From positions 29,745 to 93,744 of the IMG/VR virus record IMGVR_UViG_3300043436_004480: 64,000 bases of DNA; one strand, 5' to 3'. Position numbers and translations under genes: made by a program. The DNA comes from a virus. Of this stretch, positions 4,944 through 51,605 are shown piece by piece; the first letter of the stretch is position 1; each line of letters begins with the position of its first letter. Under the pieces are notes generated by a model, which was given only the letters and a program-made list of their open reading frames with translations, searched no databases and was not told the DNA's origin.

Positions 4944-5621
4944 CTAAGCTTTTACAGTTGTTTGTTCTGCATAATTACCTGCTGGAACAGAAACAGCATT
5001 GGAGACAGATGTTTTTGCAGCAGTTTCTTGAAGTTTCAAGTCTTTTGCAAGCAAATTTTCAATCTCTTCATCTAACCAAATGTCGTGAGTTTCACGATAA
5101 TCAATGTCAGTTTTTCCTCCAAGAGTTAATGAAGCAACTTTAAATTGAGCTACAAAGCGAGCTTTAACTTCGCCAGTTTCTTGATCTACAAAGTTTCTTC
5201 TCAAATACGGAACAATTTCTCTGTCTTTTAGACGTACTAATTGTGCCATTTTGATTTTATCAAAAGTAGTAAGACCATTGGCAATTGCACTTCTTTGATT
5301 TTCGCTTAGCAACGGAGCGCAGGCATAAATCATAATAATTCTTGGTCTGTCCCAAGCATCCACTTTTTTCTGCAATTCTTCTATGGTATCTGTTTCATTA
5401 ACTTCCATCCATACTATTCTTTTGGAATCGTAAGATTTTGTTGATGCATCAGTTAACAAAACTTCGTGGTGGGTTTTGCTAGGATCGTTACCATAAAACA
5501 ACTTTACTTCTTGTTCAAGCGTTGCTTGAAATCTGTTTTCGCCAATTGACGACTTTTTTACTTCTGTTACAGTTAATTTGCCAAACTGTACTGGACGAGA
5601 ACTTTGATTTAAGTTTTCCAT
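4944..5621 (-). CDS. hypothetical protein (225 aa), possibly nucleic-acid binding
   Basis: Long ORF with a beta-rich-looking N-terminus and low-complexity tail, preceded by a structured leader; function is inference only. Confidence 0.7.
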   Translation of the reverse strand: MENLNQSSRPVQFGKLTVTEVKKSSIGENRFQATLEQEVKLFYGNDPSKTHHEVLLTDASTKSYDSKRIVWMEVNETDTIEELQKKVDAWDRPRIIMIYACAPLLSENQRSAIANGLTTFDKIKMAQLVRLKDREIVPYLRRNFVDQETGEVKARFVAQFKVASLTLGGKTDIDYRETHDIWLDEEIENLLAKDLKLQETAAKTSVSNAVSVPAGNYAEQTTVKA

Positions 5622-5726: not shown

Positions 5727-6002
5727 CGTTTATTAAGGAAGGATGTGTTTCTGCACAATACACATCAAATTGTTGTGAAATAAGAACTTTTTAAAATACT
5801 TAAAGTCTCTCCGCAATTTTCTATTAATAAGGACTTCTGCAACGACTTCGCAGCATTTGGAATCTTATGAAAATAGAAATAATTAACTAAGGAAGTTAAT
5901 ACATGATTTTTACTTCTGCACGATACCTCTTACGTTATGAACTAGTCATCGACTTGAGTTACGCCCCACATGTTTGTCATTTCTGAAGAATTTCTGTAAA
6001 AT

Positions 6003-6030
6003 AAAAAACTCTCTGATTTCTCAGAGAGTT
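6003..6030 (-). terminator. intrinsic terminator ending the tmRNA coding piece
   Basis: AACTCTCTGA-GAAA-TCAGAGAGTT followed by TTTT. Confidence 0.85.
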
Positions 6031-6300
6031 TATTCACCGTTTTAGTAGGTTTCACTCGTTTAGCTTATGCTGCAACTGCAACACGAGAAAACATAGGTAC
6101 TGATTTGCCGTTTATGGCTTTGCTTTCCTTTCTCAGCGATTTTTCATACTGTCAAAACCGGTCTTCCCCAATTTGCAGAAATGCATCTGCACAGTACTAA
6201 AGCGACTGGTTAGCTACAACAAAAGTTGAGTGGAGAAGTAGGGATTCGAACCCTAGTCCAACATGAATTCTACTTCGATACAAGCGGAACGCATCGTAAA
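6007..6300 (-). ncRNA. ssrA: circularly permuted (two-piece) tmRNA
   Basis: Acceptor piece comes first: TTCATGTT-GGAC-TAGGG-TTCGAAT-CCCTA-CTTCTCC-A, ending at 6231. A 61-nt intervening segment follows. The coding piece starts at 6169: GGGGAAG-ACCGGTTTTGAC-AGTATGAA. The 7-bp acceptor stem has G3:U70 and A73. Tag ORF 6109..6065 reads GKSVPMFSRVAVAA*. The 5' boundary is approximate. Confidence 0.92.
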
Positions 6301-6365
6301 AGTATGCAGAGTTATTTAACTATGCAACTTTAAATTTTAAATCTTTTCCCAGAAAAAGAAAAAGA

Positions 6366-37773: not shown

Positions 37774-37798
37774 AGTCCGCCAAGTGCGGACTTTTTTT
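37774..37798 (+). terminator. intrinsic terminator
   Basis: AGTCCGC-CAAGT-GCGGACT followed by a T-run. Confidence 0.8.
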
Positions 37799-37811
37799 GT
37801 ACCTTGGCTTT

Positions 37812-40800
37812 ATGGCAAAGCAACAAAAACCTACTGTACCAGTTGTAAATCGTAGTACACAAGAAATTGATCAAATATCTAAGATGTTTGATAATGTAAA
37901 AGGTGGACTAGATAGTTATGGAAATACTGCAAGAACAAGTTTTATAGGAAAAGACGATTATACTACCAGTCAATATGATACTGAAAGAACTCAGTTCGAT
38001 GATATGGAAGCAGTATATAATGCAAGAAATGCAAATCAAAGTTACTTTGATATTGCAGGAAATATGCTGGGAAAAGTTGGAGTTCGTGCTTTGTCTGCAA
38101 CTATTGATTTAGGAGCAATGATTTCTGGTTCAGGAGTAAGCGGAGTTCCTTTATACTTATTTGATAAATACGTAAGAGATAAACATCAAAATGTAAATAG
38201 TTTTTGGGATGGTTACAAAGAATCCGTATTTGATAACTCAATAACAGATCTTGCAGATTTAGTTCAAGAATTTGGAGATGATAATTTTCAACAACAATAT
38301 AGTGCAGATCAAAGAAAATCAGATGGAGTTTCATTAAAAAGAATTGTTACAGAGGGAGTACCAGATGCAGCAGGATTTATTTTATCTGCATGGTTAACTG
38401 GAGGAACGTCTGGCGCAACAAGTTTAGTAGGAGGAGCAGCAAAAGCTGCAACTGGTATAGGATTAGCAGGAAAAGGATTAAATGCATTAAAAGCTTCTAA
38501 AAGTTTTGGAAAAATGATGACTGTTTTTCCACAAGAAACCAAAGCTATACTTTCTGCTGCTTCTAAAGGTGCAGATGTTACAGAAGATATAATTAAATTA
38601 AGTAATGCAGCTAGAAATGCAACACGTTGGAATTTAGCAAAGTCTGCATTTACAGGTTCTCTAGGAGAAGCTTCACAAGAAGGCAGAGCAACAAGAAAAG
38701 AAGTAGAAAAAGAACTTGTTGAAAATTACATGCGTGAAAATGGAATTGCAAACGAAGAAGATATAGATGTGTTTACAAGAGCGAGTCTGAGAAGTGCTGC
38801 AACAGATGCAGGTGTTGTAAATTTTGCTATAAATAGTGCAATCCTTACAGGTTCAAACTTATTATCTTTTCCTACTTATTTTAAAAGATTTCAACATGGA
38901 AAAAGAGAACTAGGAAAATTTGTAAATAAAGGAATAAACCCGGATGATGCATATGATTTAGTTAAAAAAACAACAAAACAAAGAGTAGGCGATGCAGCAA
39001 AAAGATACGGAGAAACTTTTATAAAACAAGGCACACCAGAATCCGTACAGGAACTTCTGCAGACAATGTCTTCTTCCGGAGTAACAAATTATTATTCTAA
39101 CAAATTTTCAGAAAAAGAAGCAGAAGAAGCTACAAGTGCAATTGGTGGATTTTTATCTTTGTTTGCAGATACAATCTCAAGTACAGAAGGACTTGAAGGA
39201 ATGATTGTTGGTGGTCTTATTGGAGGCGCACCGGCAATAGTTGCAAATGAAAAAGAAAGAGGTGCAAAAAGAAAAGAAGCAGCCGAATTAGTAACTGCGT
39301 TAAATAATAGCCAAGCAAAATCACAATATCCAAAGTTATTCAAAGGTATTGTAGATAATCTTAATTCTCAAAAAAAGAAAGATACTGCCCTTGTAGCAGA
39401 TGACATCTTTACTTTTAAGAATGAAGATCATAAGCAGATATTTGACTATATGAACTTGCGACTTGATCTAGATCGTGAGGAAGATATAAAAGCAGATATT
39501 GAAAATCTAAAAGTTGCAGATCCAGATATATTAGATGAATTATTTGGTGCAAAAAATAGTGAAGTAGAAGGTTTTTCTTATGCAGATTTAGCTACAAAAC
39601 TAGAAGAAAAGTTAGAGGCAGTAAAGAAAACTCGTGACAAAATAAATCTTAATTATACAACTCTTGATCAAGAAACAAAAAATCAGCTGATGTATTTTGC
39701 ATCAGCAGTTGACAACTTTGACAAGAGAGAAAACCAGATTGTTGAAGAATTGGCTGCACAAACTGGAGTAAGCGTAGATACTATTAGAGAAACTTATAAA
39801 AGTTACAAAGATACAGATGCAGTAGATTACAAAGATGTAATTCTTAGAGAATCTAAAAAGAAGTTCAATGTTAATCCTATATTAGATAGTTTAGATACAC
39901 TTGCAGATTCACTAGGATTGTCAAGTGCAACTAAGAAATCATTTTTAGATTTTGAAACTGAGAAAAAGAAAACGGAGCCTGATTTTAAAACAGATTTGGA
40001 TTCTCTGTTTAAGATTATTACAGGAGAAGCCGGTACAACATCTTCTTTGTTTTCTGGGGATAATACTAAACCTGCAAACTCTGAACTTTCATCAGTAATA
40101 GATGAAAATGCATTTTCAGATGAGTATAAATCACTAATAAGTTCTGCAAAAACAGATTATGCAGCTAAAAAACTTAAAGGCAACCAAACAAGAAACGAAA
40201 AAGGACAATTTGGAGAGAACGAAGATTTTTCTCCTCAGTCTGAACAAATAAACAAAACTTTTTCTGACTTAAAAAAAGTTGCAGACACAAGAGAAACTTA
40301 CTACAAGTATTATACTGAACTTAGCAGAAATCCATTTGCACAAGCAAGATTCAGAAACGAAGTTGAGCAAGACAAGAAGAGATATGCAGAATACATATCT
40401 AAAATATTAGCACAGCCTGTAACTACTCCTGCGGAATTAGCATCAGCAGAAACTAATACTTCTGCTTCTAATTCTATTGCAGAAGCAGGTAAAAAAGCTA
40501 CTCCTACTTCTGGTTCAATTCCATTTTCAGAAATGCCAAGTGGTTATGAAACAGGTACCGGAGATAACTCAGGTTTGCCAACTCCATCTGGAAATCAGAT
40601 TATTCAACAACCTCCTGCAAAACCAACAGAAGAAAAAAAACCGAACCAGAAAAAAGAAGAACCTTCTAAAGGAACTGGTACAAACACAAGTACACAAACC
40701 TTAAAAGAAGCACTTGCAAAGGTAGTTCAAAAAAGTAATACAATTTCTCTTAATGAAAAAGGAGATGGATATGTAGTAAAAGGTTTAGGAAAATTTTTCA

Positions 40801-43800
40801 GAAGAGCAACGTCTGTTGTAGGAAGAGAATTTACTGGCGGGAAGTCAAAGCAGACAAATCAGATTGCATTAGGTAATGCATTCGATGTATTAGGAAAATT
40901 GACTTTTGGAAAAGAAGGTGCAGAAGCTAGTGAAGAAGATAAAGCAAAATTGTTACCTATTTTTCCTTCGATTTCTCAAGAACTTGCTGATATAACTGAT
41001 GGTCTTGCAGGAATAAGAAAATCTTTAGAAACGGGATCAAAAACAAGACCAAAAGCAATAAATTTTTATACAGGTTTAAAACTTGCAAATACAACAGGAT
41101 TAAACATAGCAGGCGAAATAGATTTGCTTGTTGAGTACGAAGACGGAAGTTTACAAATTGTTGATTTTAAGTCGACTTCTTCAACTGACTATATATTAGA
41201 CAATTATCTTCCTCAACTTTCTTTATATCAGTCTTTATTACAAAGAGAACTCAATTTACCAGATGTAAATTTTAGAGAACCTGCAATAATAAATATTGCT
41301 ACTAAAGTAGATCCTAATAATTCAACATTAAGAATATTTGACGAAAAGTCTGTAAAAGCAATATCTCTTACAGATACAGAAGATAAAAAGAATCTTGGAA
41401 TAAAAACAAGAAGTTTCTTATCAATGTTATTAGAGTATGAAGGATTTACAGATGAGTACTTCTCTTTACCAGAAAACAGAAATGATTTAGAAGCTGTTGC
41501 AAGATACAATCAGGAATTATTAAGAAATCCGAATATAAATCACGAAGTAGAACTTCTTGATAATGGATTAACGGCAATATATGCAGAATTATCAGATGGT
41601 TCAGGAGCAAAAGAAAGCAAACATGTTTCTTATATTCATACTGATTCAACTCTAAAAGCATACAACATAGAAAATGCAAAGATGCTTCTTTCTGAAATAG
41701 AAAAAGACACTTGGGCAAAAGACAATCTTCTGAAACCTGATATAAAAAGAGAAATACGTTCGACTTTCGATAAATTGAATAGAGTAAGAAACGTAAGAAA
41801 CTCTTTAACAAAAGGAAAAAGAAATAAACTTTCTGTAAAAATTTCATATTCTCCTGATTTTTTTGTTAGTGAAAAAGATTGGAAGCAACAGAGAACTTTG
41901 GCAGATATGATTGCAGCAGGAGATATTCCTATTGGATCTTATGTATATGAATCATTAAGAAAAAAAGACAATAATTCTTACTCGGTAAAACCACTAAAAG
42001 AAACAGGAACTCCAGCAGACCTGACTGCTACTGCTCAAGGACTAAATGCAAAATTTCCTACTGACAAATGGATTTTAGTATTACCAAAAGCAGATTCTAC
42101 TGTTGCTCCAAAAAGAGTAACGCTAAGACCATTGCCTATATTCAAAGAAGATGGAACTTCATTGACTAAAAGTTCAAGAGAAAAGTTAGACAGTCTTAGA
42201 AAGTTAGCAACTTCAAACTTCGAAGCTTCTAAGGCTACTGATATTCTGAACTCTCTAGTTTTTATTCCTACTCAAAAACAATATGAAGTAGAAATAGAAG
42301 GAGCAGATGGAAAAATCAAAAAAGAAAATACAAATTATGACTTTAGAGTTTCAGTAGCTGGAAAACTATCAGATACTGAACTTGCAGTTACTTATCAAGT
42401 AACAAGTTATAAATATGAGAATGATACATATACACCAGTAGATTTTACTTTTACTGGAAGTATGGAATTACTTTCTGAAGATGAATTTGAATTTCTTTTG
42501 GATATGCCTACTACCGTAAACAAAGGAAAAATGTTTGAAGGTAGTGAGTTTTTAGGAAAAACAAATAAGCAGATATTTAATGAACTTCTTGGAAAAGATG
42601 GAAAACCGGGAGTAACTGAAGCGAAAGGTAAGTTTGCAATTGACAAATCTTCTTTCTTGTTAGGAAGTCCTACATCTGCATCGGAATTAGTTCCTTTATT
42701 AAATCAAGATGTGCCTATAAAAGTTGTAAAAGAGTTTGCAGAACAGGCAGTAGGCGAGGAAGTACAAGATTTGAAGAAATCGGAAACAGTTGCTAATAAA
42801 GTAGTTGATAATCTAGTTACTCCAGTAACAATAAAACAAGAGGATGAAGATACTGGATATTCTTTGTTTTCTGGGAATAATTTAGTTTCTGCTGATTTAC
42901 AGGATATAAAAAATAGACTTTCTAAAATACTTCCTTCTTCTGTTGAAGTTAGTAGTATTATGTCTATGGTTCAAAAATTAAATCTTACTGGTGCAGAACT
43001 AGGAATGGTTTATAAAAACGCAATTTATCTTGCTAATAAAATTGAAAAAGGTACAGAGTATCACGAAGCATTTCACATTGTTTTTAGGTCGATTCTTTCC
43101 GAAAAACAAAGAGCAGAACTTCTCGAAGAAGAACTTAGAAATAATCCAGTATCGCAGGAAGAAGTTGATTCTTTCAAAAATCTTCACCCATCGTATAAAT
43201 TTTTAACAAATGAAGAAGCATTAGAAAAACTTCTTGAAGAAAGATTAGCAGATAGATTTCAGACTTATCAAGTTAAAAAAGATTCTACTTCCTTGGTAGG
43301 AAAATTCTTTAACTATCTAAAAGATCTAGTTTCTTCTCTTTTTAAAAACAGAAGCAAGATAGATTCAATCTTTGCAGAAATAAGTGCTGGAAAATTTAGA
43401 AATTCTGCATTGTCTTATAATGGAAAAGCTGTATTATTCAAAGCTTTGCCAGCAATGATGGTGAGTGAATCAGACTATTTAGTAAGATGGATTTCTTCCG
43501 AAATAGCTGCTGATTTTACTAACAGAGAACAAGGTGATAATTTAGAAGAAGCGAAAGAAAATGCTTATGAAGGTTTAACTGATTCATATCTTGATAATCT
43601 TACAGAAAGATATTATGCAGAATCAGGAATGCAGATGAGCAAGGAAGAGTATGATAATTTAGATATTGCTAGTAAACAATATTATGTTGCTACGAAATCT
43701 GGCGAATATTTACCTAAATCTGGATTTCTAGATCTTTCTGCAAGACCTGCATTTTTAGCAGAATTAAGAAATGAAATTCTTAATAAGTTTAATAATTATG

Positions 43801-46800
43801 CATATTTCGATTCAGATTTGGAAGATATTAGATCTGGAGCATCTGAAACAGCAAACCTGAAAGACTATGAAGCAGAAAACAATACTGTTGGTGGATTAGA
43901 TTCAATCAATAAGAAAGTTACAGGTTGGCTAGACTCAATTTTCTACATAAATGAAAAAGGAAGAAAAGTAATGATAAATGTACAACAAGTGCATGCAAAA
44001 CTCATTACTAATCTTGCAGATTCATTGTCTGGAGAAGAACTTATTTCCAAATTAGAAAAAATTGCAGGAACAAAAAGTAATCCACGAGATAGAGAATTGC
44101 TTGCTGTATTAGATGCTTATAATGGATCTAATATGAAAAAAGAAGTTCAACTTTTGTTTTTGAATTCATACAACAAAGTGTATATGGATTCAGTAACTAC
44201 CTTGCTTAATTCTTCAATGAAGAAGATTCAGCTAGACATGGTAGAAACAAATGGTATTGCAACAGATGGCTCAACAAAATTAGTAAACGAAAACAATCGT
44301 GCTGCATTAAGAGAATATTTAGGAAACTTTAGTGGTAATTTTAATATTATAACTAAGGATAAAAACAGAACTTTATTAAATTCCGAATTACAAGAAGAAT
44401 ACGAAGACATATCTAAAAGTATTCAAGAGTTGTCAGAAGATGAACAGCAACCTATATTAGAAAGAATGAAATTCATTCTTGAAGAACACTTAGGTATGGA
44501 CCTATCAGTAGAAACTCTTAGGGAAAACTATGTTCTTACTGATAATCTGGAAACCAAAGAAGTAAAAGAGTCTATTTCTGAGATTTTGAAGTTTGTTACC
44601 AAAAAAGGACAAAATCCTTTCTTGGATGATAGTAAAGGAACTAACAATCGTTCTCGTTTGCATAAGATTATTCTTTCGGAAATGAAGTATTCGTTAGAAC
44701 CTATTTCTGCATTGACTTACAAAGATGCAACAAATAAAAATCGTTATGCAATTACCGGAATGTTTGAAGAAAAAAAACGTCTTCTTAGATTTCAAAGAGA
44801 TGGTGCGTTTTTAAGAGAAATAGTTGAAAACGATTATTTTAAGTTTTCTTCGTTATTTTCATCTGGAACAGACGGAATAGGAAAGATTTCTAGTACTCTG
44901 AATTCAATAAAATTAACTTTTGTTAATGGGCTTTCTTACAAAAAGACAAAAAACAATGGAAAGAGAACTTTCAAAGATTTTAATTCTGCTGACCACATAC
45001 TTTCTAAATTAAGTCTTTACGAAAAAGGATATATTAGTCCGTTTGTTCACGAATCAGGTTCAACCCAAACTGCATATGATTTAGGCAAACTATTTGAAAA
45101 AAATGAATTGTTAGACAGAACAGTTGAGGCATTAGAAAAAGTAAAAGACTCAACCGGAAAAGTTAAACCTGTAAATCTAAACGAATCTTTTGCTGTTCAG
45201 TATGCAAACATTTTGAAACAAGATATTCATCTTGCAATCGAAAACGAAAAACTTTTAAGAACGGCAAAAAGAAAATTAGCTGAATTACAGAAATTAGCAA
45301 AAAGCAAAGATGAAAAAGTTGCTAAAGATGCAAAAGAAGAACTATTCAAAGAATCATATCTAAATGATTTAGTTTTAGGCCTTTCTTTTAAATATGAAAC
45401 TGACGGAGAATCTTTTGTATACGACGAAGAAGGAAACAGAAAAGTGATTTTTCTAAAAGATCCGAAGCATAGAACTTTCAACAGTATTGGAGGAGTTGAT
45501 TTATTTGCTGTAATAAAAACAGAGATAAATGGTTTAGGAGAAATAAGAAAAGAAGAGCAGTTAAACTCAGATTTAATATCGTATCTAACTGATTTAGTTG
45601 AAGCAGGAGCAGATCAAACTGCACAAATAAATAAAATTCTTTCTAATTCTAAAACTGGAAGTTATGCTTCTGTTTTTCAAAAAATAAGATCTGAAATACA
45701 CAAGATCACAACTGCTTCTGTTAAAAAAGAAATGAAATTTGCACGAGATCAGGGTGTAGATTATGCTTCTTTTTTCAAAGCTACTGCCGGAGTTTCTATT
45801 TATGAAAAAGCAGAACAGTATCTTTATGAGAAAGCAGTAAGATCTTTCTTAGGTTCAGTATATGTAAACCAGATGATTACTGGATATTCTGGAGCGCATA
45901 TAAATTTTAAGAATAACGTAGATATTGCCAAAAGAAGTAAAGATAAAACTTCTTCTGGAATGGACATGAGCAACTATGCTTTTGTTAATGATTCTGAAAC
46001 AACTGTAAACTTTGCAATTATTCCTGATGACATTTCACGATCTTCTAAAAAACAAAGTAAAAAAGCAGCAGAATACGATATTATAGCAACTGATGGTGCT
46101 GCATACGTAACTGCCAACTTTATGAAGATGTATCTAAAAAGTACAGTAGGTATATCACCAAAACAAGAAGAAATTTTAGACATTATTGCAAATCCTTATC
46201 GTTGGAACGAAATCGTAAACGTAGGCGGAATAAAAAATTATCTTAGAGAAATAAGACCAAATGATTCAGAATACATGAAAGCTCTGAATACTTTGGATTT
46301 AGCTCCTAAGAAAAGTTTTGTGGCTAATCCCGGAAGTTATGATAAACTAAATCAAGGAGGAGAAATGTTTAAAGACGCTTCTTTCTTTTTGAGTCCGGAA
46401 TTAATATTCACTCTAAAAAATGGTGAATTAGTACCAAGAAAAGGAATGGAAAGACAGGCACATTTATTAAAGCAAATGACATTGCAGAATATAGATAGTG
46501 CAGTTTATGTTTCTTCTTCTAAAGCTACAAAACGAAACTTATCTGTAATTCATCCAACAGATCCTTCAAAAATGTTCTTAAAGAGTACTCCTATTTCTAT
46601 GGAGCATATAAAAGAACAAGTTAGAATGGAAAGTGGAAAATTAAAAGTAGTTCATGGTACACAATTGATTGAGTTAGCAGATATAAGTTCGGTAAAACCA
46701 GAAGAAAGAGAAGAGTATCAAACTCTTCTTGCAAACACAAGAGAAAGTGCGCAGAACTTATATAGTTTAAGTCGTAAACTTATAACTAAGAATGGATTGA

Positions 46801-49800
46801 CTGTGTTTGCAAACTCTATAACTAACCAATTGGAAAGTAAAAAGAGGAATGTGAACGTAATGAAGCTACTGTCTGGAGAAACTACTGCTAATAATGAACA
46901 CAAGTTTAAATTTAGTGTAGATTTGCCGATTATTTCCAGTTTGTTTGAAGAAGCATTTTCTTCTTTTTTTGGGAAAAATGTAAACCGTCAAAGAGTAGCA
47001 GGTTTAAAACTTACTCTTGCTCCTTCAAAAGGAATGACTTATGAAGTTACAAAAGCAGGAAAACCTACTTATAATACATTAAGAAGAGATGAAGAAAAGT
47101 ATGACTATAAAGAATTAAAAATTCATAGATACGAAAGCGGAGAATTCAAATTTGCAGAAGTTTTAATATCAGAAGAAATTCTTGATGATATAAAAATTTC
47201 TCGTAAGGATTTCTTAGCTCTTTCTGAAGAAGAACAACAGAAAGCTTTGCAAATGATTGGTTATAGAATACCAACTCAAGCAGCGCACTCAATACTTCCT
47301 ATAAAAGTAGTTGGTATTTTACCAAGATATTACGGTTCTGTTGTATATATGAACGAAGAAGCCGTAGCAATAATGGGTGCTGACTACGATATTGACTCCT
47401 TATTTGTATTTAGAAAAAAGATACAATCTATATCTACTATAAATGCACAAACAAAGAAAAAAACTACTCGTCTTCTTACTCATGAACTTAATTCAGAAGA
47501 TAGACTTGACAGTTGGCTTCAATACATGTATTCTGAAAAGAAATTTAGAGGTTTCTTAGAAAGATACGCAGAAACAAGAAGTAAAGAAGAAGGAAATGTA
47601 ATAACTCTAAAAGATATTCTTTCTATTGATGAAGAGAAAGTAATGTTATTTGGAAAATTGCAGCAGATGGGAATAATATCTCCTAACGAAAATGCTCCTA
47701 ATTATTATTCGCCTTTTCAACAGCAAAATAGAATCTTAGAACTTAATCTCGGCTTTATAAAAAGCATGAGTCAAGAAGAATTAGAAGAAGTTGCATTACG
47801 TCCAGCAGGAACGTCTTTAGTAAAGAATGTTGCAGACACAATGGCTGAATTCTTAGGATTTAACAAAAACGATGAATTCGGTTTTAATTTTCCTTCTGAA
47901 CAGCAAGAATCACAAATTCGTAATACTGTCGGAAAGAAAAACGTAGGTAATGCGGTAGCAGTTGCAGTTGCTGCCTTAGCAGTAGCTAAAAACGAATCAG
48001 TTGTAGCACATTTGTCAAACCCTCTTGGTTTAAGTGTTATTGATAGTTCTGATAGTTATGAAGCAGATGTTGCTTATGATAAAAATACAGGATTGCTTGT
48101 TATTTCTGAAAACGAAAGACAAGTTCCTAAACAATTAAGTTTTTCAGACGTTTCTTCATCTTCAACAGATGACGCAAAAGAAAACAATGCTTATAAACTT
48201 AATATAACTGAATTTACTATAAAAAGAGTAAGCGCAGGTATAGCAATGGGATTAGGAATAACTAGATCGTTACTTCTTAATACTATTCCTATAATGAAGT
48301 ATATAGCTAACTTTGAAAAACAAGGACAAAGTGCGTATGATATAAAAGAAGACTTTTTGAAAAAATCTATTGATTTTACAAAAGCTTATGAAGATTTAGC
48401 TAAAAAACCAATTCGTCTTGATAGACAAAATCCAAAACCGGCATTGATTAGATTTAATGAGATGTTAGCAGATGGAATAAATTTCTTTAAGACTGACACC
48501 GGTAAAGTAGTAAAGTCTATAATGAGAGATACGGACTCTTTTGTTTTTTCAAAAGACGTAATAGCAGAACTTAAACAAAAATTAAACGAAGAGCAGAAAA
48601 AAGATTTCGGTTTATTCTTAATAAACCAAAGAGAACTTCTTGATTTGTCTGATTATTTAGGTGACGTTGCTACTTTATTACTTAGATACAGAAAAGTAAA
48701 TTCTAAAGGAAATAAAGAGGTAGGAACTACGCTTGCAGATTATCAAGAAATTGTTGATAATTTCGAATCAGAAAAAGAAATACAAGAAAAAGTATTATCT
48801 GGAGAGTGGGAAGTACCTGCAATAGTAAGAACTGACGGAGTTCCAGCTATAACTAAAAACGGAGAAGCAATTTATAGAAATGCACTTCGTGTTTTAGAAG
48901 ATTCTGAAAATTATACTTTGAAAACAAATAAGATGTTCAGAAAATCTTATATGTCAACAAAAGGAATGTTTTATTCAGACAAGCAGAAAAAAGAAAAGAT
49001 GTTAATTGACTCTTTCTTTAACTGGTTTAATATTCAGGCTGCAAAAAGACGTAGTTCAGCAATAAAAGACACCCAAACTTTAGCTAAGGAATATATCTTT
49101 TCAAAAGATAACAATGTAGCCAAGAAAATAAATACTTTATTAGCAAGTAGTCCTGAGTTACAAAAACTTCTTAGAAAAAATACTTTCTGGAAAAAGTTAG
49201 AAATAACAGACATTGATCATCAAAAAGGTATTTTTGCAGCAGAAATAAAGTTTCCAAGTTATTCTACTAAAGATACTATGGTAGAAGATAAAATTATTCA
49301 AGATGCATCTATAATATTTACTAATTTAAAACTTAGTAACTTTTCAGAACAGGATAAACCACTTGCTGAAAAACTTTCAAAGGAATTAAAAACTCTTCGT
49401 GAATATTTAACTACTTATGAATTACTAAGATCAGGATTGTCTTATAAAAATAATAGTTACACTTCAAAGATGCCTGCATCTTTATTTTCAAAACAATCTG
49501 ACTTTTTAGAAAATTTAAGAACTGAAATTTTTGCAGAAGTAACCAGAGAAGAGGCAGCATTAGTAGCTAAAAAATACTCTGTTGATCCGAGTGTTATAAC
49601 TAAAATGGATGTAGTTTCCAGAAGACTGTATTATTTACTAAATCCTAATGCAGAATCAGAAAACAAACCTTACAAACCCGGAACATCAGAAAGTGCATGG
49701 ACACATAGATTTAATTATTTTTCTGTTTATTTCAAAAAGAATGAAAACAGAATATCTTTGTCTTCAGTTTTTGGAAGTGTAACAAAAAATGAAACTGACA

Positions 49801-51605
49801 TAAACAAAATAGTAAAGTCTATAAATTCAGCATTTGCAGCAGAAAAATTTGGTCTTTCTGGAAACTCCCAGATTTTTGAAGTAAAAGAAGAGGAATTAGG
49901 AAAAAAGTTAAACTTTTCTTTAAATCAATCAGCGATTGATTTACTAAGTCCTGAACAAAAATCTGCATTCTTATCTAATTTTAGGAATTACTTATTCTTT
50001 AACAAAAAAGAAGAAAAGTATGAACTTGCTTTACCTATGGTGATAAGAATGTCTTATGCAGCAAACCCTCATGTTTACATAAGAACAGATGCAAAAAAAG
50101 GTAATTACACTAGAATTGACAAATTAGATGGTCTTGAAGACTTACCATTTGATATAAATTCATTTAGTTCTGGAGAAGAATTAGATAAATTTATGAATAC
50201 TCCAGAAGTTAAAGCATATTTAGCAGAGATTAAAAAACAAAGAGATGCAAACTTACCTCCGAATACAGTATCTGGACTTGCAGGTTATTCACAAGAAGAT
50301 TTTAGGACTGGTCAATCAGAAGATGATTTTGATTCAAGTTATGTTCGAGAAGCTTCTGCGGAAGATGATAAATTTAATCCTGATTTAATAGGTTTTAGTA
50401 CTGTTGGTGAAAGTTTTGAAACTCCGTCAACTTCAATAGGAAAAAATATAGTTTCTATAAAAATTCCACAACTTAAAGTAAGTGGAGTGATGTCTTATCA
50501 AACTACGCAAAATGCAACAGATGAAGCAAAAGAAAAAATAGGAAGTAGTAATCCAACCAGTTTAGAATTAATAAAGTTTGGATTTAGAACAAGAACAACA
50601 CGCTCTGCATCAGAAATGAAAAAATATAATCTCAAAAAAGGAGATTTAGTTTATCAATCTGGAATTATAAATGGCAAACCTGCTGAAATTCTAACAAGAA
50701 TAACAGATGTAATTTACAAAAACGATCCTCGTTTTGTATCAACTTGGAATCAAGAAGGATGGACAGAAGAAGGAAAGTTTGTTCTTGATACAAAGTATAA
50801 AGATGCTGAATCAGGAGCAATATTTTTTGAAGTTATAGAAAATGAAAAACCTTCTGAAAACAGCCCAGAAAAGAAAGAAGACTCTGGAATTTCTATAAAT
50901 TCTCCAAGAAAGCCCAAACCAAGAAAAGTTGATGACAACGAAGCACCTGACTTTTTGCAAAAAGCTTCAAACACACAACAAATCTCACTAGATGCAGCAG
51001 AAACTATTTTGAAAAAACTTTCTTCAAAACTTAACTTGCCGTATTCTTTTGTTTCTGGTACTGGAAAATGGATAGGAAGATTTGACGAAAGAACCGGAGG
51101 AGTAGAAATAAATCAAAATGCAGAAATTGGTTTAGATACTCCTTTTCACGAATTTCTGCATCCTTTTATTTTAATGATTCAGAAAACTCGTCCTGAATTA
51201 TATAATTCTCTAATTGACCAAATTATAGAAGAGGGAAAAACTTTAACAAGAATTTCGGAACTTTATCCTGAACTTTCACAAGAAGGAATAATAATGGAAG
51301 CAATAGTAACTAAGACTGGCGAACTTGCAGCAGGAATTTACGCAAACAAAAAAGAACAATCTTTATTCCAGAAAGTTTTATCTGAAATAAAATCTATTAT
51401 TAGTTCTATTTTGGGAATTAACGAAGATTTCGTATCTTTAGATAACGCTACATCTTTGTTTGACTTAGCGCAAATAATGAATGATAATAATTCTTACGAC
51501 ATGTCTTCATTATTTAATCAGAATAAAGAAACACATTTAGCAAAGCTAAAAATGACGGTTTCTTCTTTAGTAAAATCAGACACTTTAACTTTCAGTTGCA
51601 AATAA
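37812..51605 (+). CDS. giant virion-associated RNA polymerase polyprotein (~4597 aa)
   Basis: GYRIPTQ and catalytic GADYDIDS (47382-47396), ATDGAAY; also PD-(D/E)xK and HExxH domains; ATG at 37812. Confidence 0.9.
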   Translation: MAKQQKPTVPVVNRSTQEIDQISKMFDNVKGGLDSYGNTARTSFIGKDDYTTSQYDTERTQFDDMEAVYNARNANQSYFDIAGNMLGKVGVRALSATIDLGAMISGSGVSGVPLYLFDKYVRDKHQNVNSFWDGYKESVFDNSITDLADLVQEFGDDNFQQQYSADQRKSDGVSLKRIVTEGVPDAAGFILSAWLTGGTSGATSLVGGAAKAATGIGLAGKGLNALKASKSFGKMMTVFPQETKAILSAASKGADVTEDIIKLSNAARNATRWNLAKSAFTGSLGEASQEGRATRKEVEKELVENYMRENGIANEEDIDVFTRASLRSAATDAGVVNFAINSAILTGSNLLSFPTYFKRFQHGKRELGKFVNKGINPDDAYDLVKKTTKQRVGDAAKRYGETFIKQGTPESVQELLQTMSSSGVTNYYSNKFSEKEAEEATSAIGGFLSLFADTISSTEGLEGMIVGGLIGGAPAIVANEKERGAKRKEAAELVTALNNSQAKSQYPKLFKGIVDNLNSQKKKDTALVADDIFTFKNEDHKQIFDYMNLRLDLDREEDIKADIENLKVADPDILDELFGAKNSEVEGFSYADLATKLEEKLEAVKKTRDKINLNYTTLDQETKNQLMYFASAVDNFDKRENQIVEELAAQTGVSVDTIRETYKSYKDTDAVDYKDVILRESKKKFNVNPILDSLDTLADSLGLSSATKKSFLDFETEKKKTEPDFKTDLDSLFKIITGEAGTTSSLFSGDNTKPANSELSSVIDENAFSDEYKSLISSAKTDYAAKKLKGNQTRNEKGQFGENEDFSPQSEQINKTFSDLKKVADTRETYYKYYTELSRNPFAQARFRNEVEQDKKRYAEYISKILAQPVTTPAELASAETNTSASNSIAEAGKKATPTSGSIPFSEMPSGYETGTGDNSGLPTPSGNQIIQQPPAKPTEEKKPNQKKEEPSKGTGTNTSTQTLKEALAKVVQKSNTISLNEKGDGYVVKGLGKFFRRATSVVGREFTGGKSKQTNQIALGNAFDVLGKLTFGKEGAEASEEDKAKLLPIFPSISQELADITDGLAGIRKSLETGSKTRPKAINFYTGLKLANTTGLNIAGEIDLLVEYEDGSLQIVDFKSTSSTDYILDNYLPQLSLYQSLLQRELNLPDVNFREPAIINIATKVDPNNSTLRIFDEKSVKAISLTDTEDKKNLGIKTRSFLSMLLEYEGFTDEYFSLPENRNDLEAVARYNQELLRNPNINHEVELLDNGLTAIYAELSDGSGAKESKHVSYIHTDSTLKAYNIENAKMLLSEIEKDTWAKDNLLKPDIKREIRSTFDKLNRVRNVRNSLTKGKRNKLSVKISYSPDFFVSEKDWKQQRTLADMIAAGDIPIGSYVYESLRKKDNNSYSVKPLKETGTPADLTATAQGLNAKFPTDKWILVLPKADSTVAPKRVTLRPLPIFKEDGTSLTKSSREKLDSLRKLATSNFEASKATDILNSLVFIPTQKQYEVEIEGADGKIKKENTNYDFRVSVAGKLSDTELAVTYQVTSYKYENDTYTPVDFTFTGSMELLSEDEFEFLLDMPTTVNKGKMFEGSEFLGKTNKQIFNELLGKDGKPGVTEAKGKFAIDKSSFLLGSPTSASELVPLLNQDVPIKVVKEFAEQAVGEEVQDLKKSETVANKVVDNLVTPVTIKQEDEDTGYSLFSGNNLVSADLQDIKNRLSKILPSSVEVSSIMSMVQKLNLTGAELGMVYKNAIYLANKIEKGTEYHEAFHIVFRSILSEKQRAELLEEELRNNPVSQEEVDSFKNLHPSYKFLTNEEALEKLLEERLADRFQTYQVKKDSTSLVGKFFNYLKDLVSSLFKNRSKIDSIFAEISAGKFRNSALSYNGKAVLFKALPAMMVSESDYLVRWISSEIAADFTNREQGDNLEEAKENAYEGLTDSYLDNLTERYYAESGMQMSKEEYDNLDIASKQYYVATKSGEYLPKSGFLDLSARPAFLAELRNEILNKFNNYAYFDSDLEDIRSGASETANLKDYEAENNTVGGLDSINKKVTGWLDSIFYINEKGRKVMINVQQVHAKLITNLADSLSGEELISKLEKIAGTKSNPRDRELLAVLDAYNGSNMKKEVQLLFLNSYNKVYMDSVTTLLNSSMKKIQLDMVETNGIATDGSTKLVNENNRAALREYLGNFSGNFNIITKDKNRTLLNSELQEEYEDISKSIQELSEDEQQPILERMKFILEEHLGMDLSVETLRENYVLTDNLETKEVKESISEILKFVTKKGQNPFLDDSKGTNNRSRLHKIILSEMKYSLEPISALTYKDATNKNRYAITGMFEEKKRLLRFQRDGAFLREIVENDYFKFSSLFSSGTDGIGKISSTLNSIKLTFVNGLSYKKTKNNGKRTFKDFNSADHILSKLSLYEKGYISPFVHESGSTQTAYDLGKLFEKNELLDRTVEALEKVKDSTGKVKPVNLNESFAVQYANILKQDIHLAIENEKLLRTAKRKLAELQKLAKSKDEKVAKDAKEELFKESYLNDLVLGLSFKYETDGESFVYDEEGNRKVIFLKDPKHRTFNSIGGVDLFAVIKTEINGLGEIRKEEQLNSDLISYLTDLVEAGADQTAQINKILSNSKTGSYASVFQKIRSEIHKITTASVKKEMKFARDQGVDYASFFKATAGVSIYEKAEQYLYEKAVRSFLGSVYVNQMITGYSGAHINFKNNVDIAKRSKDKTSSGMDMSNYAFVNDSETTVNFAIIPDDISRSSKKQSKKAAEYDIIATDGAAYVTANFMKMYLKSTVGISPKQEEILDIIANPYRWNEIVNVGGIKNYLREIRPNDSEYMKALNTLDLAPKKSFVANPGSYDKLNQGGEMFKDASFFLSPELIFTLKNGELVPRKGMERQAHLLKQMTLQNIDSAVYVSSSKATKRNLSVIHPTDPSKMFLKSTPISMEHIKEQVRMESGKLKVVHGTQLIELADISSVKPEEREEYQTLLANTRESAQNLYSLSRKLITKNGLTVFANSITNQLESKKRNVNVMKLLSGETTANNEHKFKFSVDLPIISSLFEEAFSSFFGKNVNRQRVAGLKLTLAPSKGMTYEVTKAGKPTYNTLRRDEEKYDYKELKIHRYESGEFKFAEVLISEEILDDIKISRKDFLALSEEEQQKALQMIGYRIPTQAAHSILPIKVVGILPRYYGSVVYMNEEAVAIMGADYDIDSLFVFRKKIQSISTINAQTKKKTTRLLTHELNSEDRLDSWLQYMYSEKKFRGFLERYAETRSKEEGNVITLKDILSIDEEKVMLFGKLQQMGIISPNENAPNYYSPFQQQNRILELNLGFIKSMSQEELEEVALRPAGTSLVKNVADTMAEFLGFNKNDEFGFNFPSEQQESQIRNTVGKKNVGNAVAVAVAALAVAKNESVVAHLSNPLGLSVIDSSDSYEADVAYDKNTGLLVISENERQVPKQLSFSDVSSSSTDDAKENNAYKLNITEFTIKRVSAGIAMGLGITRSLLLNTIPIMKYIANFEKQGQSAYDIKEDFLKKSIDFTKAYEDLAKKPIRLDRQNPKPALIRFNEMLADGINFFKTDTGKVVKSIMRDTDSFVFSKDVIAELKQKLNEEQKKDFGLFLINQRELLDLSDYLGDVATLLLRYRKVNSKGNKEVGTTLADYQEIVDNFESEKEIQEKVLSGEWEVPAIVRTDGVPAITKNGEAIYRNALRVLEDSENYTLKTNKMFRKSYMSTKGMFYSDKQKKEKMLIDSFFNWFNIQAAKRRSSAIKDTQTLAKEYIFSKDNNVAKKINTLLASSPELQKLLRKNTFWKKLEITDIDHQKGIFAAEIKFPSYSTKDTMVEDKIIQDASIIFTNLKLSNFSEQDKPLAEKLSKELKTLREYLTTYELLRSGLSYKNNSYTSKMPASLFSKQSDFLENLRTEIFAEVTREEAALVAKKYSVDPSVITKMDVVSRRLYYLLNPNAESENKPYKPGTSESAWTHRFNYFSVYFKKNENRISLSSVFGSVTKNETDINKIVKSINSAFAAEKFGLSGNSQIFEVKEEELGKKLNFSLNQSAIDLLSPEQKSAFLSNFRNYLFFNKKEEKYELALPMVIRMSYAANPHVYIRTDAKKGNYTRIDKLDGLEDLPFDINSFSSGEELDKFMNTPEVKAYLAEIKKQRDANLPPNTVSGLAGYSQEDFRTGQSEDDFDSSYVREASAEDDKFNPDLIGFSTVGESFETPSTSIGKNIVSIKIPQLKVSGVMSYQTTQNATDEAKEKIGSSNPTSLELIKFGFRTRTTRSASEMKKYNLKKGDLVYQSGIINGKPAEILTRITDVIYKNDPRFVSTWNQEGWTEEGKFVLDTKYKDAESGAIFFEVIENEKPSENSPEKKEDSGISINSPRKPKPRKVDDNEAPDFLQKASNTQQISLDAAETILKKLSSKLNLPYSFVSGTGKWIGRFDERTGGVEINQNAEIGLDTPFHEFLHPFILMIQKTRPELYNSLIDQIIEEGKTLTRISELYPELSQEGIIMEAIVTKTGELAAGIYANKKEQSLFQKVLSEIKSIISSILGINEDFVSLDNATSLFDLAQIMNDNNSYDMSSLFNQNKETHLAKLKMTVSSLVKSDTLTFSCK

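Follow-up and report, generated by a model that had tools for sequence, protein, structure and literature searches.

Two-piece tmRNAs encoded by circularly permuted genes are described from Alphaproteobacteria, a betaproteobacterial lineage and picocyanobacteria (Keiler 2000; Sharkady and Williams 2004; both as cited in PMC9004378), and two-piece tmRNAs of phages are also established (PMC9004378). The text of the latter study assigns 50 of 53 two-piece phage tmRNAs to marine or aquatic sources, yet its Table S1 (Buchholz et al. 2022) lists at least 10 human-derived crAss phages as 'Permuted' (cr7_1, cr10_1, cr50_1, cr52_1, cr60_1, cr114_1, cr115_1, cr124_1, cr125_1 and cr273_1). The 2025 tmRNA database contains 79 phage sequences and reports sporadic permuted forms in Bacteroidota assemblies. 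In RefSeq, members of the gene family described below are annotated as 'transfer-messenger RNA, SsrA' or 'tmRNA, SsrA' in cr7_1 (Suoliviridae), cr124_1, cr130_1 and cr131_1. No discussion of a permuted family of the crAss or Bacteroidota type was found in the main text of the literature searched.

The locus analyzed here lies on the minus strand of a 64-kb stretch of viral DNA (referred to as the window). It is very probably a functional, phage-encoded permuted tmRNA gene, belonging to a phage-borne family that would derive from the one-piece tmRNA of Bacteroidota. The identification is sound, but the gene is not new; the novelty claimed in the original prediction is refuted by the crAss-like phages already catalogued with permuted tmRNA in RefSeq and in Table S1. 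The part that is unexplained is a covarying pseudoknot in the spacer between the two halves of the gene.

The phage and its host

The window is part of a 93,744-bp IMG/VR virus record with an estimated completeness of about 57%. The terminase large subunit (TerL), portal protein and major head protein (MCP) of the record match crAss-type PHROGs, in agreement with the original assignment to the crAss-like phages. The MCP matches only crAss-like phages (of Bacteroides, Flavobacterium, Cellulophaga and gut metagenomes), with identities of about 30–33% (about 32% to Crassvirales). This restricted set of matches at low identity indicates a deep-branching crAss-like phage, a distant relative of the gut crAss phages, with a host that is very probably a member of Bacteroidota. 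No close relatives of TerL or of the neighboring protein (4944–5621) were found among viral contigs; the locus itself returned nothing at E≤1e-5 in a blastn search of 50,697 phage records, and no match in an exact 29-mer scan of viral contigs. SmpB, for which no gene had been seen in the window, was not found across the whole 93.7-kb record (about 57% complete), nor were a CCA-adding enzyme or RtcB, so that host factors would be needed for tmRNA function. The late-gene arm of the window also contains a single open frame of 4,602 codons (37797–51605, plus strand), presumably a giant virion protein typical of crAss-like phages.

Detection and anatomy of the tmRNA gene

ARAGORN called a permuted tmRNA (tmRNA*) at 5974–6320 with the tag GKSVPMFSRVAVAA, the sole RNA gene called in the window. 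A search of the window against Rfam 15 gave two matches above threshold, the hatchet ribozyme RF02678 (see below) and tmRNA_permuted RF04321, the latter at 6277–6065 with 59.1 bits (gathering score 47; E 6.5e-09 for the whole window). The one-piece model RF00023 matches the 3′ half of the tRNA-like domain with 35.4 bits. A two-piece tmRNA had been proposed from the letters of the DNA; every feature then quoted is present when read on the minus strand, and both programs detect the gene, ARAGORN with the same tag and RF04321 over its cut-off. The features of the locus are as follows.

~6296–6231, minus strand: acceptor piece (approximate 5′ end)
6261–6296, minus strand: 5′ region of the acceptor piece, 3′ strand of helix 2 (sequence reading)
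6292–6286, minus strand: GC-G-UUCC, proposed partner of GGAA-A-GC at 6128–6122
6277–6275, minus strand: CGA (sequence reading)
6267–6260 with 6150–6143, minus strand: helix 2a, UUCAUGUU with AGUAUGAA, 8 bp
6231–6260, minus strand: 3′ half of the tRNA-like domain, with UGGAC, T arm, CUUCUCC and A6231 (ARAGORN, RF04321 alignment, RF00023)
6255–6239, minus strand: T arm UAGGG/UUCGAAU/CCCUA, 5-bp stem (sequence reading)
6238–6232, minus strand: acceptor 3′ strand CUUCUCC (sequence reading)
6231, minus strand: discriminator A, followed by CUC; CCA not encoded
6230–6170, minus strand: spacer (intervening sequence), 61 nt (sequence reading)
6192–6215, minus strand: H-type pseudoknot (covariation)
6169 to ~5996, minus strand: coding piece
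6143–6169, minus strand: 5′ half of the tRNA-like domain, with GGGGAAG, ACC, GGUUUUGACAG and the helix 2a strand AGUAUGAA (ARAGORN, RF04321, sequence reading)
6169–6163, minus strand: acceptor 5′ strand GGGGAAG (G1 = 6169), pairing 7/7 with CUUCUCC
6110–6142, minus strand: linker from helix 2a to the restart codon, including GGAA-A-GC (6128–6122) and AUAAAC (6115–6110) (sequence reading)
6065–6109, minus strand: tag frame, with GGC (6109–6107), GKSVPMFSRVAVAA and the stop UAA (6067–6065) (ARAGORN)
6049–6092, minus strand: helix-5-like hairpin around the last tag codons and the stop codon (sequence reading)
5996–6031, minus strand: intrinsic terminator, 11-bp stem and GAAA loop (6031–6006) with U tract (terminator scan, 1 found versus 0.3 expected)
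5901–5990, minus strand: hatchet self-cleaving ribozyme RF02678 (61.4 bits, gathering score 51)

A6231 precedes G6169 with 61 nt between them, so that the tRNA-like domain is encoded with its 3′ half first. The acceptor stem contains G3:U70 and A73 (A6231). The sequence AUAAAC|GGC opens a 14-codon frame (6109–6068) that is closed by UAA. The helix-5-like element consists of an outer stem, GUUUUCUCGU (6092–6083) with ACGAG(U)GAAAC (6059–6049), and an inner hairpin, GUUGC-AGUU-GCAGC (6082–6069); the equivalent inner hairpin of relatives is CCNNN-(A/U)AG-NNNGG, with compensating changes. The coding piece probably ends at the terminator. No pseudoknots corresponding to PK1–PK4 are evident in the mature RNA: helix 2a and the restart codon are separated by 33 nt, with no PK1 equivalent seen upstream of the restart codon, and the stop codon is followed only by the hairpin and the terminator. 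PK1–PK4 are not strictly defining for a tmRNA, and reduced tmRNAs are known. A plain minimum-energy fold of the whole precursor did not recover the tmRNA fold.

The 3′ end varies among relatives. In many of them the plain terminator at the end of the coding piece is replaced by a G+C-rich hairpin whose conserved loop (GUGCGAAAU or GAACGAAAU) resembles a T loop; this hairpin is absent from the window. At seven loci the tmRNA gene is flanked by other RNAs, a tRNA gene ending 5–15 nt ahead of the acceptor piece and a further RNA after the coding piece; the tmRNA of these tRNA-array carriers is probably cut out by tRNA processing enzymes.

A phage-borne family of permuted genes

Related loci were collected with two patterns. 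The first (a T loop, followed 60–90 nt later by GGTTTTGACAG) found eight viral contigs, and all eight loci pass the Rfam cut-off with 55–61 bits and have compensating acceptor stems. The second was built on the tmRNA 3′ end (UGGAC-T arm-NNNNUCCAC, 50–80 nt, a complementary strand starting with GGG, and GGUUUUGACAG) and found 56 viral contigs and 110 metagenome stretches. The window fits this pattern, which also retrieved the contig of cr7_1 itself. Together with the window there are 167 instances (123 unique), all with identical gene order. The acceptor stem is paired 7/7 in every instance, with 18 distinct stem sequences, G3:U70 and discriminator A; U70, the discriminator and the following C were fixed by the search pattern, which left G3 and the other stem pairs unconstrained. 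The T stem is paired 5/5 in 166 of the 167, and CCA is encoded in only 10. ARAGORN reported a permuted tmRNA with a tag for 86 of the 123 unique sequences. Since one order is common to 167 independent stretches, the permutation is not an artefact of assembly, a concern attached to the original prediction.

As a control, a looser pattern was run on 185,579 bacterial species genomes (one per species) and gave 57 hits, none with 7/7 acceptor pairing. These hits are a tRNA next to an ordinary tmRNA, or chance matches, and were rejected as permuted tmRNAs; six are one-piece tmRNAs following a tRNA. The full pairing in all viral hits to the same loose pattern, as against 0 of 57 in bacteria, puts the match beyond chance, and the permuted form of this type is essentially phage-borne. 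The carriers are not only crAss-like phages: four of five tested lack the crAss-type MCP and TerL, and one has both. The permutation had been attributed to an event in this phage; the gene is instead a member of a large phage-borne family that includes non-crAss phages.

Pairing between the two pieces was examined for the family as a whole. The stretch immediately after GACAG is the partner of the 5′ region of the acceptor piece (mean z −2.2, with 58% below −2, n=89). A minimum-energy cofold pairs this 5′ region with the 3′ tail of the coding piece, but the family mean z of that pairing is 0, and it was rejected. In the window alone, helix 2 is weak beyond the 8-bp helix 2a (duplex z about 0). 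Near its start the acceptor piece has a GUUC box, whose partner is a GRAC box ahead of the restart codon; the window has UUCC with GGAA, and in one locus (L205) the strands of the two boxes are swapped.

Relationship to other tmRNAs

The tRNA-like domain had been described as Bacteroidota-like, and it matches the one-piece tmRNAs of Bacteroidales. Five such tmRNAs, chance recoveries from the pattern scans, share with the phage family a 5′ end of the form GGGGNNG-ACC/UUU-GGUUUUGACAG and a 3′ end of the form GUUUGGAC-NN-GG(G)UUCGA..CUCCAC (GUUUGGACGAGGGUUCGAAUCCCUCC..CUCCAC). Both groups have C but no CA after the discriminator, and GGC (Gly) is the restart codon in all five Bacteroidales genes examined. 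A one-piece tmRNA from a Muribaculaceae metagenome-assembled genome has the ACC-GGUUUUGACAG sequence and the helix 2a geometry of the window, and the 3′ end of a one-piece tmRNA from Muribaculaceae is almost the same as the 3′ half in the window. Of 201 sampled Bacteroidota genomes, 33 contain the 5′ motif, mostly at tmRNA 5′ ends that start with GGGG; for two other phyla the figures are 5 of 201 and 6 of 201, close to what the reversed-pattern control gave. The host-type gene of Bacteroidales (RF00023) is in one piece of about 397 nt with PK1–PK4 and the tag GENNYALAA, whereas the permuted phage gene has mature parts that add up to about 240 nt and contain no pseudoknots, and encodes a tag that is longer and different.

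The two-piece tmRNAs of alphaproteobacteria, betaproteobacteria and cyanobacteria and those of marine phages (RF04321; Melnitz phage) resemble the window in having a permuted gene and a precursor for an acceptor piece and a coding piece. However, the RF04321 consensus, which was built from alphaproteobacterial, betaproteobacterial and cyanobacterial sequences, combines GGUUUCGAC with a UUCGAUU T loop and encodes CCA, while the window has GGUUUUGACAG, UUCGAAU and no CCA. Additionally, the tags of those lineages start with alanine, in contrast to the restart at GGC (Gly) in the window. The matches of the tRNA-like parts, the GGC restart and the missing CCA to Bacteroidales one-piece tmRNAs make it likely that a tmRNA of Bacteroidota was permuted separately from the alphaproteobacterial, betaproteobacterial and cyanobacterial two-piece lineages, in one or several events.

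The closest described genes are those of the RefSeq crAss-like phages (Suoliviridae: cr7_1 (NC_055895), cr124_1, cr130_1 and cr131_1). They share with the window the gene order, the Bacteroidota-type tRNA-like domain without encoded CCA, the small mature pieces without pseudoknots, and a structured spacer. They differ in the tag ([GD]NVNNIVDYTNVA instead of GKSVPMFSRVAVAA), in the sequence class of the spacer pseudoknot (the window has the GCUAACC type), and at the 3′ end, which overlaps a tRNA-like call (tRNA-Cys) where the window has a plain terminator followed by a hatchet ribozyme.

The tag peptide

The tags form families with fixed starts (GGC or GAC), and 79 of 86 end in VA or AA. The window tag falls in the G-K-x-[IV]-x-M-F...L-R-[AM]-V-A family, and those of human-gut Suoliviridae are [GD]NVNNIVDYTNVA. 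The original prediction was right that the tag is unlike GENNYALAA tags of hosts, but within the phage family it is typical. The restart codon is GGC in 55 of 86 members; the restart context is ATAAAC in 8 of 86, and TTAAAC or ATAACT in 44 more. Differences between tags at codon positions 1, 2 and 3 are 5.8, 5.4 and 7.4, which would be modest evidence of selection on the peptide. The P-x-R core of the tags coincides with a conserved, covarying RNA hairpin, and so does not provide clean evidence of peptide selection.

The spacer contains a covarying pseudoknot

The spacer of the window consists of a hairpin CAAC-UUUU-GUUG (6228–6217), the pseudoknot (6215–6192) and a hairpin UGCAGA-UGCAUU-UCUGCA (6191–6174), followed by AAUU. 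The pseudoknot stems are S1, AGC (6215–6213) with GCU (6203–6201), and S2, CAGU (6208–6205) with ACUG (6195–6192); the loops UAA(C), C and UUAGU are conserved, and the 24-nt motif can be written as NGC-UAAC-CNGY-C-GCN′-UUAGU-RCNG. On 22 distinct sequences, 99.4% of cells are paired and five of the seven pairs vary on both sides. None of 500 shuffles equals this value, and slid controls are 8–54% paired. A simple hairpin (GCUAAC/GUUAGU) was considered in place of the pseudoknot and rejected; it shows no covariation, and one of its pairs is broken in 8 of the 22 sequences.

Scanned with the exact pseudoknot pattern, all viral contigs together yielded 28 hits, about 25 of which are inside permuted-tmRNA spacers, between the acceptor 3′ end and a GGGG...GGUUUUGA start; these include tmRNAs too diverged for the first patterns. 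The GCUAACC-type motif is present in 24 of the 123 unique spacers. A second, unrelated class of pseudoknot (ACAAC-C-N6-U-GUUGU-AAAAC-N6′), which ends 3 nt before G1, is found in 32 of the 123; it is the class of the human-gut crAss-like contigs (L071–L226) and has compensating changes (UAGGAA/UUCCUA, UAAGCA/UGCUUA and UAGACA/UGUCUA). A comparison of the spacer with Rfam returned no family at E≤10 apart from a chance hit of 10.9 bits, and no description of the spacer pseudoknot was found in the literature searched. The tmRNA database paper describes the intervening sequence as absent from the mature RNA, its comment being limited to odd inserts. In relatives, UUCGCC(A) or UGCCAG is a frequent loop of the first spacer hairpin, which follows the acceptor 3′ end; these loops cut across the spacer classes, and that of the window is UUUU.

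Tentatively, the spacer may be a selected RNA module, which either directs or times the two processing cuts of the precursor or is released as a stable small RNA with a function of its own. In the form in which cleavage at the RNase Z and RNase P sites frees a stable pseudoknotted RNA of about 60 nt, acting as a processing cofactor, ligand sensor or sponge in addition to the tmRNA, this proposal appears rather unlikely. It would account for the strong covariation and the invariant loops, for the near confinement of the pseudoknot to tmRNA spacers and for the second class at its fixed distance from G1, and the ssrA genes of marine phages are known to carry a glutamine riboswitch (PMC9004378). 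However, the presence of two unrelated pseudoknots in one position suggests that the role is structural or in processing, rather than tied to a specific ligand or target. Moreover, 53 of the 123 spacers fit none of the crude classes tallied, other inserts are present in some spacers, and the spacer matches no Rfam family.

A hatchet ribozyme downstream of the gene

The hatchet ribozyme starts 5 nt past the U tract of the terminator, and its predicted cut is after C5988, at the 5′ end of the ribozyme itself. Its core is fully matched; P1, capped by a GAAA loop, is only 3 bp long. Self-cleavage of hatchets takes place at the 5′ end of the ribozyme, and in about 90% of them a P0 hairpin is located immediately upstream (Li et al. 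2015, PMC4604424). Whereas P0 of a typical hatchet is close, the upstream hairpin in the window is the tmRNA terminator, about 20 nt away. Eight other tmRNA-bearing crAss-like loci have hatchets 2–5 kb upstream on the same strand, each with its own P0, so that direct adjacency of tmRNA and hatchet is particular to the window. The P0 hairpins of these eight loci share a GUGAGAAUAG-like loop. A second copy of the hatchet cut-site context was not found downstream in the window.

Proposed function

The processing, charging and tagging steps that we infer from the sequence would start with one transcript, from about 6296 to the terminator at about 5996. In this precursor, the folded spacer would most likely stop the loop that caps the acceptor stem from mispairing, so that both processing sites are presented. 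Host RNase P would cleave 5′ of G6169, and host RNase Z or exonucleases would trim after A6231 (or C6230), releasing the 61-nt spacer; CCA would be added by the host CCA-adding enzyme. The acceptor and coding pieces would be held together by the acceptor stem and helix 2. Transcripts that read through the terminator would be cut by the hatchet 8 nt past the U tract, separating the tmRNA from the downstream mRNA. Charging is predicted to be by host alanyl-tRNA synthetase (AlaRS), through G3:U70 and A73, and host SmpB and EF-Tu would carry the charged RNA to stalled ribosomes. Translation would restart at GGC, add A-GKSVPMFSRVAVAA and stop at UAA. Ribosomes would be released for phage protein synthesis, and the tagged fragments would probably pass to host proteases.

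Alternatively, the RNA could be processed and bind host SmpB, AlaRS or EF-Tu mainly to block or divert host trans-translation, sparing phage proteins the degradation tag of the host. Such a decoy has a precedent in the tmRNA of phage DS6A, which has no tag frame and inhibited the endogenous tmRNA in E. coli (as cited in PMC11915505), and it would suit a mature RNA without any pseudoknots, a tag unlike the GENNYALAA-type tags of hosts and a record without a phage SmpB. It is nevertheless improbable, as a decoy needs neither the restart context nor the open frame of 10–25 codons nor the stop codon, which are kept across 86 tags, and would not need tag ends (VA or AA) that resemble degradation tags. 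That the locus is an inert remnant, either host tmRNA pieces picked up at an attachment site or a decaying pseudogene, is hardly credible: temperate phages often carry 3′ ssrA fragments as a general point (PMC9004378), but here 167 stretches have both halves, always in the permuted order and with acceptor stems that change in a compensating way, the permuted form is absent from the 57 pattern hits in bacterial genomes, and the gene has its own terminator. A functional tmRNA gene is the preferred reading.

Implications

The crAss-like phages are among the most abundant viruses of the human gut. Many of them, like the distant relative analyzed here, carry their own ribosome-rescue RNA, and the family looks like a further, phage-borne origin of two-piece tmRNA, derived from Bacteroidota. 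As a nearly minimal tmRNA that still encodes a tag, it would be useful for asking which parts of a tmRNA are indispensable and why a lytic phage devotes resources to rescuing ribosomes. Worth work at the bench are the folded spacer and the self-cleaving ribozyme beside the gene. If the spacer is indeed a selected module, its pseudoknot would be an RNA motif not yet catalogued, associated with a phage group that ranks among the most abundant in the gut.
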